This document shows, one piece after another, positions 48,430 through 63,477 of a stretch of DNA of 64,000 nucleotides. The stretch is from NCBI GenBank assembly GCA_964016885.1, contig OZ024740.1, positions 325,996,001 to 326,060,000 on the forward strand. The letters are read 5' to 3'. The position numbers and the translations under genes are program-made. Each line of letters opens with the position of its first letter. Positions within the stretch are counted from its first letter, which is position 1. The notes under the pieces were generated by a model, which was not told the origin of the DNA, searched no databases, and saw only the letters and a program-made list of their open reading frames with translations. Origin of the DNA: Eledone cirrhosa. Lineage: Eukaryota.

Positions 48430-51400
48430 TAATCTGTTATTTTAATAAATATATATAAGTTTAAGCAAAGAATCGCTGCTTTCACCCTACACACACATAT
48501 AGCGACGTTATAATGTCGTAATGCAGACAGCTAGAGATACATTATAAGGGTGCAACGTTATATCTATGTATCTATCTAAAAAGAAAGTCTAAGAATTATA
48601 GAGAGATCGCCTAATGCGGTCCCTAGGGCATTGAAAATTTGAAATATTTGCTCAAAACACTCACATGACCATAAGTATTACATGTGTAAAGTTTGAAAAA
48701 AATCGGTTGGGTGGTTCTCGAGTTTTAGGGAGACACAGACACACTGTCTGTTTTAAATATATAGATAAACATATTCATCATCGTTTTTACTTCTGCTTTT
48801 CCCCACTCGCATGGGTTATACAAAAGCATATTGTATATACTTTTATATATGTCTTGAACATAGTTTTTAATAACATGGAGATGGGGCTTAAGGAATCTGA
48901 TGTCTTCATAAGATCAGGCCCAATGTATTTAGTTGTTGGATCAACTGAACGTCCTACTCACGAAGTTGTATAAATGGCTGAGTATTCCAGTTACATATAC
49001 CCTTAACATAACTTTTAGTGTGACATTGCTGAGCCTTTGTATGACAGACACGCGTTCATCTCATATGTATCATAGTCCAAGTGGCTGAGTATTCTACAGA
49101 CAGGTGTACACTTAGCATAATTCTCAGGGAGATTCAACATGATACAGGGTGTAACAATGCTGCTCCTTTAAATTACACCTTATGTTAGAATGTAAGTGGC
49201 TGAGTATTCTAGACACATGTATTTTTAATATAATTCTGACAAAATATACATGCTACAATACGTATGTAGCAAGGATTAGCCTTTGAAATATAGGTATAAT
49301 CCATCCAACAGGCTTCCACAGTTTCCATTTACCCAATTTCACTCACATGGCTTGGTTACCACAAGGATATGTTAAGTCACTTGCCCAAGATGCCAAGTAG
49401 GGGGATCAAACTCGGGACCTGATAACATGTTATGTGATATATCGTCATTGTTTAATGCTCATTTTTCCATGCTTGCATAGGTTAGACGGGTCATCCATAT
49501 TATGATACAAATTTGGCCAGTTGGTTGCACCATACCTTACTCAAACGGAACTGTATTTTGGCTAGGATTTTTAGTTGGATGTCCTTCCTAATACCGACCA
49601 CGTTTAATTTGGAGAAATTTCTTTTAGGCAATTTTCTCAGCTTAAGCAGGAATTAGCTTTGCTGGCCATATGGCTTAACTTTTAGCATCCTGTAACTACA
49701 TGAGACTGCATCAGCTATACTTTCTTGAAAAGTATAAAACACAATGACTATCTCGCATTAAAAGTTTAAAAATCCGTCCAGTAGTAAAAGTACTATAAAC
49801 ATTTGAATTAACAAACCTGTTTTTTTTTTTAGATATTTTCTGCAATATCATTGCAGGTTGTTAAACGTCAATTATACTCATAATTGTTTCTACTTTTAGC
49901 ACAAGGCCAGCAATTACCCAGTACATTACTGGTACTTTATTTTATCGACCCCGTAAGGATGAAAGGCAAAGTTAACCTCGGCGGGATTTGAACTCAGAAT
50001 GGCAAGGGCAGTAACTCTATGCGTCAAAGCATGGCGTCCAACTCGCTACCGATACTGCCAATTCACCGCCAATTATACTCATAATGTGGGGATTTTTTAT
50101 GCAATTTTTTACAACCAGATTCCCTTTCTTGCACCAACCATTTTAATCTTAGGGATATGGCATACCTATTCTAAACCAAATATGTCATCTTCAAAATAAT
50201 TTATTTAGCATAGATCTCCAAATATATTCAGATTTCTTCGAGATTTTGATTTTCAGAAATTTTTTTTTTTTTTAATTATTTTCATTTTCTTTTGTTTATT
50301 TGTTTTGCTTATTTTGTTATTTTTGTTCCATGTTTTTAATAGGGAAAATCTGAGGCCAGTGCAGAGGTGAAAGTAAGTTTTTCTTGCTACATACACATAT
50401 ACATGCTTCCTGATGCACAGCATTGTGCCATTAGACTAAATGTTTTAAGGCATATTTTATCCCAGTGGCTAGTTTGGAGGAATTTACTGTTAAGATATGT
50501 AAAGAGAAGGTGGAACACAGCCTATTATATAATGTGGTTCTGGTCACTACAGATAAATTTTATTATACAGAAACTATGTAATATGACAGTTGCAGCTTGA
50601 TAACTTCTATTTTCGCTATTTGGTGGCTGGCATAGTCCATACTTGGTTTATAAGTCGGGAATGCAAGTTAGGGATTGGTTTAGCAAGGTCATAAGTTTAT
50701 GGTGCTTTCTAAGTGTTTTGTCTACAGGTTAAGGCAATCAACTTACTTAGTGCGTGTGTGTGCATGCACAAGCACACACACATTGTGTACTTACATACAC
50801 ATTACATACAAACATATGTACATATAGGTGCATGGCTTAGTGGTTTGGGGCTTACAATCGTGAAGTTGAATTCAATTCCTGGACCGAGCAGTGTGTTGAA
50901 AGACATTGCTCCAGTTCAGTCAGCTCTAGAAATTTGTGACATCACTGGTGCCAAGCTCTCAGCCATTGCTTTTCCTTTGGACAATATCGACGGTGTAGAG
51001 GGGAGACTGGTATGCATGGGCGACTGCTGGTCTTCCACAAACACACCTTGCCCGGGCTTGTGCCTCAGAGGGAACTTGTGTGTGTGTCTATAGAGATTTT
51101 TGCATATTAATAACAATTAGGATGTAAGGGATTTTACACATTAGCTATATCACTAAATCCTTCAAAATTGTTTATTCAAAATGATTTGAATATAATTGGT
51201 AGTGTTTTTATGTTTTTATGGGGAGTAGGAGCCAATGTTTTTTTTTTATGTAGTGAGGTGACAGCTTGGATTAAGACAGCATAATCCCTCTGTTACATTG
51301 AGGTTTTCCAAGGTGTGCAACACCAATATAATGTATTATATACCTACTGAATACTGAGGCCCTGTCAGTTATGGATTTTGTAAATTGAACAAACTTGACT

Positions 51401-63400: not shown

Positions 63401-63477
63401 TTAAATTTTAGTCAAAAGAAGAAAAACCTGAAGAACCAGCTGAGAAAACTGAAGAAACTACTGAAAGTGCAGAATGA
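26639..63477 (+). CDS. VAT1L: VAT-1 homolog-like synaptic vesicle protein (MDR/quinone oxidoreductase family); spliced CDS span, 5' exon not found in window
   Basis: Twelve AG/GT-bounded exons join in one frame: [78 protein letters not shown], then an acidic tail ending in TGA. These motifs are characteristic of VAT1/VAT1L. Confidence 0.9.
30560..31507 (-). mobile_element. RTE-clade LINE 3' fragment, subfamily A
   Basis: [32 protein letters not shown]; 3' UTR with ggatgcccttcctaac module. Confidence 0.9.
31655..32576 (+). mobile_element. RTE-clade LINE 3' fragment, subfamily B
   Basis: [38 protein letters not shown]; stop codon at ~32043; tail ...gacgtaaaacgatgat. Confidence 0.9.
32575..32754. 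repeat. 11-bp unit microsatellite (TATATATCTAT shifting to TATATATCTCT)
   Basis: Direct reading. Confidence 0.92.
34490..34706 (+). mobile_element. SINE family 1 copy (others at ~4525-4870, 18670-18845, 26190-26385, 41010-41215)
   Basis: tggcagtaatggtagagc...gttcaaatcc...tttcatccttac.gggtcgataaaataaag. Confidence 0.82.
34965..35187. repeat. (TA/TG)n compound microsatellite
   Basis: Direct reading. Confidence 0.9.
35186..35834 (-). mobile_element. RTE-clade LINE 3' fragment, subfamily B
   Basis: ORF 35383-35817 [21 protein letters not shown]; reverse complement of 31930-32576. Confidence 0.9.
37177..37392 (+). CDS. VAT1L: VAT1L-like exon B (216 nt): [17 protein letters not shown]...[30 protein letters not shown]
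   Basis: ttacag acceptor, gtgagt donor; phase 0-0; start of the Rossmann AGGVG motif. Confidence 0.95.
38755..38897 (+). CDS. VAT1L: VAT1L-like exon C (143 nt): [47 protein letters not shown](K)
   Basis: ttccag acceptor, gtaagt donor; completes AGGV|GQA; not in the ORF track. Confidence 0.93.
39174..39589 (-). mobile_element. Two head-to-tail SINE family 1 copies
   Basis: Two cores (39174-39345 and 39352-39585); flanking direct repeat cttcctaataat. Confidence 0.85.
39945..40048 (+). CDS. VAT1L: VAT1L-like exon D (104 nt): [34 protein letters not shown](G)
   Basis: ttttaaag acceptor, gtgagt donor; phases 2 and 1 fit the neighbouring exons. Confidence 0.93.
41742..41797 (+). CDS. VAT1L: VAT1L-like exon E (56 nt): (G)[18 protein letters not shown]
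   Basis: ttgtag acceptor, gtgagt donor; VAT1L-type [13 protein letters not shown] motif. Confidence 0.93.
41845..42085 (-). mobile_element. RTE (Expander/Rex3-like) LINE 3' fragment from a different family
   Basis: [38 protein letters not shown], a typical RTE C-terminal motif. Confidence 0.7.
42490..43722 (+). mobile_element. RTE-clade LINE 3' fragment, subfamily A, with a PHD-like finger
   Basis: SKTKVL-[C4HC3]-[30 protein letters not shown]; (GAT)n tail; possible TSD tttaagtt. Confidence 0.9.
43761..43955 (+). CDS. VAT1L: VAT1L-like exon F (195 nt): [29 protein letters not shown]...[13 protein letters not shown]
   Basis: tatttcag acceptor, gtaagt donor; open frame, phase 0-0. Confidence 0.93.
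44183..44366. repeat. poly(A) followed by (ATAATAATAATG)n and (ATAATG)n microsatellite
   Basis: Direct reading; fills about a third of the intron between exons F and G. Confidence 0.93.
44491..44568 (+). CDS. VAT1L: VAT1L-like exon G (78 nt): [26 protein letters not shown]
   Basis: ccccatcag acceptor, AG|gtaagt donor; C-terminal MDR motif NIGKIIL. Confidence 0.93.
45996..47241 (-). mobile_element. 5'-truncated copy of the same CR1-type LINE, nearly identical to 58621-59787
   Basis: [31 protein letters not shown]; near base-for-base match to the long copy; (TTA)n tail. Confidence 0.93.
47958..48765 (-). mobile_element. Non-autonomous Helitron
   Basis: On the minus strand it starts A|TCTATATATTT and ends with hairpin CCCG-AGCAGCGC-CGGG...CTAG|T; inserted in an AT dinucleotide with no TSD. 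Confidence 0.85.
49885..50069 (-). mobile_element. tRNA-derived SINE family 1, young copy; more than 12 copies in the window
   Basis: A-box TGGCAGTATCGG, B-box GTTCAAATCC, core gccgaggttaactttgcctttcatccttacggggtcgataaaataaagtaccag; ~16-bp TSD caattatactcataat. Confidence 0.9.
50343..50372 (+). CDS. VAT1L: microexon 1 (30 nt): [10 protein letters not shown]
   Basis: Long U-rich tract plus tag acceptor, gtaagt donor, phase 0-0; possible alternative donor GAG|gtgaaa after 50366. Confidence 0.75.
53155..53595. repeat. Five degenerate ~95-bp modules
   Basis: Recurring gaccaaggaaacaatgtttcc..tggtctttccattgctgatactatctg; a single copy at 42205-42285. Confidence 0.75.
54162..54191 (+). CDS. VAT1L: microexon 2 (30 nt): [10 protein letters not shown]
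   Basis: ctaat branch-like site, ttccag acceptor, GAG|gtaagt donor, phase 0-0. Confidence 0.8.
54317..54346 (+). CDS. VAT1L: microexon 3 (30 nt): [10 protein letters not shown]
   Basis: Strong polypyrimidine tract plus ttccag acceptor, GAG|gtaaga donor, phase 0-0. Confidence 0.8.
54661..54830. mobile_element. hAT-type MITE (170 bp)
   Basis: Perfect 8-bp TSD ACTAGAAT (54653-54660 and 54831-54838); TIRs cggtgccggattta and taaatccagcactg. Confidence 0.88.
56661..56681 (+). CDS. VAT1L: microexon 4 (21 nt): PPDAGSE
   Basis: tttatttatag acceptor, gtaagt donor, phase 0-0; composition matches the other tail exons. Confidence 0.7.
58700..61262 (-). pseudogene. LINE ORF2 endonuclease/reverse transcriptase, fragmented
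   Basis: Consecutive ORF pieces 60660-61262, 59984-60667, 59731-60027, 59045-59776 and 58642-59151; internal RT deletion at ~59787. Confidence 0.9.
61322..62532 (-). pseudogene. LINE ORF1: PHD-like Zn finger, EQQQKP repeats, coiled coil, RRM-like domain; one frameshift near 62010-62045
   Basis: CHIC...CGTC...CLQC...[46 protein letters not shown]; ORFs 61924-62673 and 61322-62008. Confidence 0.8.
63412..63477 (+). CDS. VAT1L: terminal coding exon: [21 protein letters not shown]
   Basis: ttttag acceptor, purine-rich acidic frame, TGA at 63475-63477; AATAAA overlaps the stop codon. Confidence 0.78.
   Translation, partial: SKEEKPEEPAEKTEETTESAE

Follow-up and report, generated by a model that had tools for sequence, protein, structure and literature searches.

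The VAT-1-like gene of Eledone cirrhosa raises the question of whether the short acidic segments that follow its folded domain are true exons and whether their alternative use could vary the C-terminal tail of the protein. The stretch of contig OZ024740.1 analysed here, 64,000 nucleotides in length, is referred to as the window; all coordinates are positions within it, and all features described lie on the + strand.

Identity of the gene

A frame check showed that 12 exons between 26639 and 63477, with AG/GT-ended joins, give a single stop-free frame of 365 codons plus the stop. The first of them within the window, at 26639..26768, corresponds to the ADH_N region; it was placed by tblastn with relatives and carries a Pfam match to PF08240 (26640-26768, E 4.5e-7). 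The core continues at 37177..37392 (216 nt), where the identity to O. bimaculoides VAT-1-like is 96%, and through exons placed by tblastn at 38755..38897 (143 nt), 39945..40048 (104 nt), 41742..41797 (56 nt) and 43761..43955 (195 nt). The final exon of the folded MDR domain, at 44491..44568, ends in a phase-0 donor and was delimited by tblastn, alignment with PDB 4A27 and AlphaFold2.

The core is identical to that of O. bimaculoides, O. vulgaris and Argonauta at 293/307, 294/307 and 289/307 positions, respectively (94-96%), and the window protein fell into a 99/100 clade with the Octopus and Argonauta proteins in a tree built without vertebrate rows. The orthologue P0002 matched human VAT1L (PDB 4A27) with an E of 4e-142, and the orthologue score was 477 bits to VAT1L 4A27 versus 344 bits to VAT-1. 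The Pfam match, the 4A27 match and the clade bear out the initial assignment to a VAT-1-like gene; as judged by sequence comparison, it is the octopod VAT1L, with a GroES-like plus a Rossmann MDR domain and nearest to VAT1L. The two later glycines of the A/GxGxxG nucleotide-binding motif are retained, and position 1 is Ile in the window and in the cephalopod relatives; the same position is Ala in human VAT-1. The first exons of the gene were not found in the window, nor in the genome with a 72-aa query. No second VAT-1-like locus was found in the genome, the two other matches being distant MDR domains of 28-29% identity. The "synaptic" label given to the protein derives from the family name, as do the putative NADPH-dependent activity and vesicle location; human VAT-1 is also described as cytoplasmic and mitochondrial (PMC7822847).

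Four short segments downstream of the folded domain are exons

Four short segments lie between the core and the terminal coding exon: microexon 1 at 50343..50372 (30 nt, net charge 0), microexon 2 at 54162..54191 (30 nt, net -2), microexon 3 at 54317..54346 (30 nt, net -3) and microexon 4 at 56661..56681 (21 nt, net -2). Sequence and isoform alignment support each of them, and the terminal exon (63412..63477; 21 codons plus TGA, net -6) is additionally supported by the frame check. All four have a yAG acceptor (TAG for exons 1 and 4, CAG for exons 2 and 3), a GTAAG donor and a length of 3n, and are stop-free in phase 0; an intron of 125 nt (54192..54316) joins microexons 2 and 3 as a pair. The coordinates, peptides, phase and splice sites given in the preliminary description were thus all reproduced in the sequence check.

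The frequency of such segments by chance was assessed with a filter for a T-rich tract, YAG, GTRAG and a length of 6-51 nt. Applied to the 18.8 kb of tail introns, the filter returned five candidates, and the four that were 3n and stop-free were exactly the four microexons. The 108 kb control, made up of the upstream + strand and the whole - strand, yielded 13 candidates, of which four were 3n and stop-free and none was acidic, giving a proportional expectation of about 0.7 3n stop-free candidates per 18.8 kb. Just one extra candidate, weak and 12 nt long (57833-57844), emerged from a relaxed composition scan. Sequencing contigs from three samples, possibly the sample of the assembly itself, cover introns and behave as DNA; they contain no splice joint and show no letter differences over exons 1-3, and those of two samples match 56535-56679, in the region of exon 4. 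A fourth sample yielded short low-complexity pieces, likewise without a splice joint. Among sequencing runs searched with 43600-44700, a stretch whose AAT repeat may account for 21 rows of small share, no RNA run was listed.

Peptides orthologous to the four stand in the same order in the VAT-1-like proteins annotated for O. bimaculoides, O. sinensis/vulgaris and Argonauta, and they exclude pseudo-exon status. On this comparative evidence the four segments are true exons. The concern that automated annotation might miss them found no support: the RNA-guided annotation of relatives includes them. Exon 4 reads as seven codons here and has eight (24 nt) in every relative. Under a stricter definition of microexons, 3-27 nt, only exon 4 qualifies. 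The definition used here is that of an internal exon of ≤51 nt, as given in PMC4317164, and all four fall within it with their lengths of 21-30 nt, canonical sites and orthologous blocks that are present or absent in the isoforms of relatives.

Exons 1 and 4 are skipped in annotated isoforms of relatives

In both O. bimaculoides and O. sinensis, the RefSeq isoforms X1-X4, which are predicted models (XP_014779831-834 and XP_029644056/065/074/082), have 437, 429, 427 and 419 aa, and their differences are exactly the 10-aa and 8-aa blocks. Exon 1 is skipped in X3 and X4 and exon 4 in X2 and X4, whereas exons 2 and 3 are present in 8/8 sequences. Alternative inclusion, as had been suggested, therefore occurs in the annotated isoforms of relatives for exons 1 and 4, but the up to 16 combinations envisaged shrink to four (4/16) among these eight sequences of two relatives. 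The full-tail O. vulgaris entry P0012 is without exons 3 and 4, and P0015 and P0017 end early, so the number of forms may exceed four. Of 11 Octopus proteins, just the tail-less entry is without exon 2, and the single Argonauta protein carries all four exons. An alternative donor at 50366 (GAG/GTGAAA, versus AAA/GTAAGT at 50372), proposed to yield forms with and without the residues VK, found no counterpart: the form without VK occurs in 0/7 proteins with exon 1.

Carried over from the relatives, independent skipping of exons 1 and 4 is likely in Eledone cirrhosa too. The tails predicted here from the relatives' isoforms would then likely be 41, 48, 51 and 58 aa long, with net charges of -11, -13, -11 and -13. 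Given that exon 1 has a net charge of 0 and exon 4 of -2, exon 1 would alter length only and exon 4 would add charge. The octopod span between forms is small, 17 residues and 2-3 charges.

The tail is acidic and predicted to be disordered

AlphaFold2 modelling of the Argonauta protein (82 sequences) gave residues 381-437 a pLDDT of 39-51, without helix or strand, and the alignment with PDB 4A27 reaches residue 375 only. I, L, M, F, W, Y and C are all absent from the octopod tails counted (seven proteins and the four window forms). Identity of the tail to relatives is 40-41/58 (~70%) versus 94-96% for the core; the lengths of its exons are preserved, as is its net charge (-12 vs -13). The octopod tail is longer and more acidic than in 30/30 named other molluscs, whose tails are short and weakly charged. 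The modular acidic tail originally proposed is upheld: the octopod VAT1L C-terminus is acidic and, by prediction, disordered. Alternative micro-exons of human are reported to lie preferentially in disordered regions (PMC4317164).

Exon resemblance and a squid-like expansion

The resemblance of the four exons had suggested duplication. This finds some support for the motif common to exons 3 and 4 (p 0.002) but not for the four exons generally, protein-level resemblance being significant in 1/10 exon pairs. In-register DNA comparison gave 17/30 for exons 2 and 3 (p 0.025), and two other pairs were not significant; flank similarity scores, obtained without a control run, were low. In cuttlefish/squid-like proteins, we found a larger array, made up of six acidic modules of 10 aa, and six tail forms, as read from protein sequences. 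Similarity among the six modules is clear (4.5 vs 1.5 of 10, p 0.0002), and the tails vary in 10-aa steps from 58 to 118 aa and from net -13 to -26. The order of the octopod tail is similar to that of squid-like tails with z of 4.3 and 3.8, a third giving 1.9.

Squid-like relatives appear to have expanded the tail, and the coleoid expansion is modestly interesting and seemingly undescribed. A bolder proposal, which we put forward tentatively and hold to be doubtful, is that the coleoid VAT1L tail is an expandable, splicing-controlled charge ladder, with four microexons in octopods and at least six duplicated 30-nt acidic exons in squid and cuttlefish, most with CK2-type sites, whose neuron- or tissue-specific inclusion (possibly eMIC) would set the charge from about -9 to -26. 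If the expansion were exon-based and tissue-regulated, it would show, in a compact form open to testing by PCR, how microexons arise and duplicate in the lineage whose brains are the largest among invertebrates; it would also provide a candidate reporter for an eMIC programme in cephalopods and a way into VAT1L, a protein of unsettled function.

A possible length- and charge-tuning tail and the alternatives

We lean modestly towards the reading that exons 1 and 4 are skipped independently here and that the four resulting tails tune electrostatic and steric spacing on the folded domain. Exons 2 and 3, with their CAG acceptors and 125-nt intron, would be a near-constitutive pair when spliced; exons 1 and 4, with TAG acceptors, long flanking introns and a UGC 32-37 nt upstream, would be the regulated cassettes. 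Considering its composition and the troponin T precedent, the tail may act through length and charge rather than through a motif, and could damp or tune how the NADP(H)-binding MDR domain meets anionic membranes or partners, leaving the fold unaltered. Literature searches brought up no functional data for the tail of any VAT1L protein.

Somewhat unlikely, though the strongest competitor, is that the exons are real but that skipping them produces near-neutral variation, which is tolerated; exons of phase 0 within a disordered tail could be gained, duplicated and skipped cheaply, and the isoforms would be functionally alike. Tails also vary in a chiton, a nemertean, a mite and moths, an observation as compatible with tolerance as with tuning. 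Such neutrality sits less easily with the consensus splice sites retained on 21-30 nt exons amid repeat-filled introns of 2-7 kb, with the 2x2 isoform set shared in the annotations of two species, with the order similarity to squid-like tails and with the length and acidity that set the octopod tail apart from those of the other molluscs.

An SRRM3/4-type (eMIC) neural programme, with many combinations of the four exons in neurons and skipping elsewhere, is improbable to our judgement. UGC lies at -37 relative to the acceptor of exon 1, at -77 for exon 3 and at -32, -75 and -92 for exon 4, and none occurs within 93 nt for exon 2; in the skipped exons 1 and 4, a UGC falls between the candidate branch point and the AG. 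The AG-free zones are 84, 31, 103 and 33 nt for exons 1-4, versus 20-51 nt in five core exons and 48 nt in the terminal exon, those ahead of exons 1 and 3 being in keeping with such a programme. The exon lengths agree with the 31-nt median of eMIC targets in the fly (10.1101/2021.02.24.432780), and squid-like proteins show multi-module combinations. In addition, the genome contains an SRRM_C-family match of 29.3 bits against a cut-off of 27 (E 0.004, profile 12-55 of 67) in an AG..GT exon, a candidate eMIC regulator exon. Weighing against the programme, exons 2 and 3 are never skipped in the RefSeq set, no UGC lies within 30 nt of any of the four acceptors, no UCUC-rich tract was found near the exons, and GCATG, the RBFOX motif, is absent within 300 nt of them; UGC is reported as not strictly required for eMIC-dependent microexons (10.1101/2024.09.17.613571). 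The acceptors are also strong here, whereas those described for fly eMIC targets are extremely weak (10.1101/2021.02.24.432780).

That an ordinary tail has simply been split into four exons, all constitutive in Eledone cirrhosa, or that some of the four are pseudo-exons, is very improbable: the near-perfect GTAAG donors, the lone Argonauta protein and the mostly constitutive human micro-exons (6469 vs 1480, PMC4317164) agree with constitutive use, but the annotations of O. bimaculoides and O. sinensis/vulgaris include skipped forms, and the orthologous peptides exclude pseudo-exons.

Comparison with known systems

Nothing was found in the literature on cephalopod VAT1L or its splicing, and "VAT1" and "VAT" had no matches in the text of 10.64898/2026.09.05.749416, PMC9699675 and PMC10370119; the exons could still be listed in supplementary tables of octopus exons from such work. 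Human VAT1L (PDB 4A27) and VAT-1 (6LHR, 6K9Y) have the MDR/quinone-oxidoreductase fold and the family in common with the window gene, but the solved chains are without a comparable tail, and motif position 1 is Ile here rather than Ala/Gly. The existing annotation of the Octopus RefSeq VAT-1-like proteins includes both the microexons and the 2x2 set of isoforms; as read here, exon 4 of Eledone cirrhosa is one codon shorter. The neural microexons of the SRRM3/4 (eMIC) type are likewise short and frame-preserving, and some UGC and AG-exclusion features and a candidate regulator exon may add to the likeness; unlike them, the exons described here have strong acceptors and no proximal UGC, and two of the four are apparently constitutive. 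Schistosome MEGs also have runs of short symmetric exons amid long introns (10.1101/2023.06.21.545858), but the MEG proteins are secreted by the parasite and consist mostly of exons of this kind, whereas here just the tail of a conserved enzyme-fold protein is involved.

A parallel in logic is troponin T, in whose N-terminal hypervariable region alternative exons set length and acidity beside a conserved core, exons 4-8 determining the acidity of the variable end (PMC8559874). Troponin T is an unrelated protein with its variable segment at the N-terminus rather than the C-terminus, and its developmental regulation and functional effect have been shown, whereas those of the VAT1L tail are putative. 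The system described here is real and already annotated in relatives: an ordinary variable, acidic tail, predicted to be disordered, with a troponin T-like logic, in which the use of alternative microexons is cleanly illustrated.

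A spliced acidic tail in the octopod VAT1L gene

Splicing very probably sets the length and charge of the acidic tail that follows the VAT1L core, which ends at 44568. The four segments claimed in the preliminary description were recovered on the forward strand at 50343-50372, 54162-54191, 54317-54346 and 56661-56681 (exons 1-4; 30, 30, 30 and 21 nt), stop-free and in phase 0. Each has a T-rich stretch that ends in YAG on its 5' side and a GTAAG donor on its 3' side, and the terminal coding exon lies downstream (63412-63477, +). Across the tail introns (18.8 kb), one splice-site filter returned five candidates, and the four in-frame ones were exons 1-4; in 108 kb of control sequence it returned 13, four in-frame and none of those acidic. 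Twelve exons with canonical ends (26639-63477) join into a single open frame of 307 core and 58 tail residues. The first exons of VAT1L lie outside the window; with the query used, none was found in the window or the genome. Exon 4 has 7 codons in the window assembly and 8 in relatives, reflecting either biology or assembly. The tail introns also contain two near-identical reverse-strand LINE-like retroelement fragments (45990-47240 and 58620-62500), of very high copy number in DNA runs.

Presence and absence of the exons was seen in the Octopus cluster (11 proteins, isoforms being annotation models). O. bimaculoides has four RefSeq isoforms of 437, 429, 427 and 419 aa, and O. sinensis has four of the same lengths, sequence-identical to four O. 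vulgaris entries. The eight RefSeq isoforms differ only by the exon 1 block (10 aa) and the exon 4 block (8 aa), in all four combinations, and exons 2 and 3 occur in 8/8; the exons are thus real and already annotated in relatives, and our literature search found no description of octopod VAT1L tail microexons. The single Argonauta protein includes all four. One O. vulgaris entry has nine other residues in place of exons 3 and 4, whose Val-Ser start would fit read-through of a GTAAGT donor, and another terminates after exon 2. A tail-less isoform may also exist, since O. vulgaris P0015 (382 aa) terminates right after the core, as would read-through at 44569. In the window, 44569-44616 reaches a stop after four codons, with AATAAA at 44611.

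Applied to the window, the four combinations attested in relatives would yield tails 41, 48, 51 and 58 aa long, carrying net charges of -11, -13, -11 and -13; exon 1 is charge-neutral and adds length only, and exon 4 adds charge. Each form has three S/T-x-x-D/E (CK2-type) sites.

Gene identity and exon duplication

Assignment to a VAT-1-like gene was borne out by a 216-nt exon that shares 96% identity with 'VAT-1 homolog-like' of O. bimaculoides. The window core shares 94-96% identity with proteins of Octopus and Argonauta and groups with these (clade support 99/100), which assigns the window to an octopod. The Argonauta orthologue scores 477 bits against human VAT1L (4A27) and 344 against VAT-1, with the alignment stopping at residue 375. 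AlphaFold2 gives this protein a confident core and residues 381-437 a pLDDT of 39-51 without secondary structure. The 'synaptic' label is inherited from the name of the Torpedo protein; human VAT-1 is described, in an excerpt of PMC7822847, as NADPH-binding with an oxidoreductase fold, mitochondria and lipid transfer also being implicated. In the Rossmann A/GxGxxG motif at the end of 37177-37392, cephalopods carry Ile at the first position and a scallop carries Val; human VAT-1 and VAT1L differ from cephalopods there. A distant, apparently intronless MDR-family protein is encoded at another locus (G000:C20:36366967-36370404) by one 392-codon open frame (1285-2460), presumably resembling mitochondrial enoyl-CoA reductase.

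Judged against shuffles, only exons 3 and 4 were similar at the protein level (p 0.002, 1/10 pairs) and, in register, exons 2 and 3 weakly at the DNA level (17/30, p 0.025, 1/3 pairs); the remaining likeness is shared composition. The preliminary description held for real exons, a VAT-1-like gene and alternative inclusion, the last as annotated in relatives, but not for general duplication, nor for a form lacking Val-Lys through a donor at 50366, because exon 1 is complete (10 residues) in 7/7 proteins carrying it and the inner donor reads GAG/GTGAAA.

Tails and optional segments in other animals

In all 30 named non-cephalopod mollusc matches the tail measures 8-37 aa, with a net charge of -6 to +2; outside this named set, the match P0055 has a long acidic tail. 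No tail variants were found among 13 oyster proteins or five other mollusc isoform sets; outside cephalopods, variants differ by 13 aa in a chiton, 6 aa in a nemertean and 4 aa in a mite, a weevil has alternative ends, and the tails of three moths are trimmed in a nested manner.

A conserved 8-aa insert at the position of intron 41798-43760 is optional in isoforms of Littorina, Babylonia, Physella and Biomphalaria, and occurs in Elysia, Candidula, Batillaria and Bulinus (P0188, P0190, P0191, P0138 and P0071 bear on it). The insert falls within a low-confidence loop, apparently the counterpart of the VAT-1 NADP-responsive switch segment, and is a likelier functional microexon than those of the tail; no matching exon was found in the window. 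Tachypleus isoforms P0062 and P0063 carry two alternative peptides for exon 41742-41797, the pattern expected if duplicated exons were used in a mutually exclusive way; in the window, a single copy was found.

Module arrays in squid-like proteins

Proteins from Logan contigs formed two groups (A and B) within the cephalopod clade, outside octopods. We call them squid-like because group B matches a pharaoh cuttlefish protein at 90/91 residues of the last core stretch, and they most likely represent spliced RNA, since contigs of only 1.2-3.9 kb contain their complete open frames. The eight group B proteins with a tail (group B includes P0114, P0022, P0117, P0115, P0119 and P0112) fall into six tail structures, 58-118 aa long with net charges of -13 to -26, the contigs backing junctions and not whole-molecule combinations; one 58-aa variant has net -12. 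All deletions are multiples of 10 aa. The five group A proteins (including P0019, P0111, P0005 and P0004) have tails of 34, 53, 62 and 102 aa. Six optional group B modules are interrelated (4.5 vs 1.5 identities per 10, p 0.0002) and could be one repetitive exon; CK2-type sites increase from 3 to 12 as modules are added. Short squid-like tails resemble the window tail in order (z 4.3 and 3.8; a third, 1.9), a similarity absent in two named mollusc tails and two further tails. This array of related acidic 10-aa modules sits where the window introns follow 44568 and far exceeds the octopod cassette; of these observations, the expansion of modules in coleoids most merits further study.

Splicing control and mechanism

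Exons 1 and 4, skipped in relatives, have TAG acceptors with UGC at -37 and -32, respectively, whereas exons 2 and 3 have CAG acceptors, with only 125 nt of intron between them, a difference that, across four exons only, hints at the skipping pattern. TAG also occurs in two constitutive exons. An RS-rich exon in the genome searched (G000:C22:28167743-28167880, minus strand) matches Pfam SRRM_C just above the cut-off, prokaryote controls being uninformative. SRRM_C corresponds to the eMIC, the domain behind the SRRM3/4-type neural microexon programme, and the exon is likely part of the gene encoding it. Neural control of exons 1-4 is possible.

Tail splicing would most likely leave the folded MDR domain unchanged and determine how long and how strongly charged the flexible acidic bristle is, which may tune contact with membranes or partners. 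Such tuning, argued by analogy, is far less secure than the splicing itself; its main rival is that tail variation is tolerated and near-neutral. Disordered regions are enriched in alternative micro-exons, according to part of PMC4317164.

In the excerpted account of 10.1101/2021.02.24.432780, the median length of fly eMIC targets is 31 nt; their 3' sites are extremely weak, and they have UGC near the AG and UCUC-rich tracts. Exons 1-4 resemble them in length and partly in the AG-free zone, but match them poorly in the strength of the acceptor and the position of UGC. Of mammalian targets, 74-79% have a UGC that lies between the branch point and the AG, and this UGC is not strictly required, as stated in a portion of 10.1101/2024.09.17.613571. 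For the proposed tuning of the VAT1L tail, the like model is the variable end of troponin T, as outlined in a section of PMC8559874.
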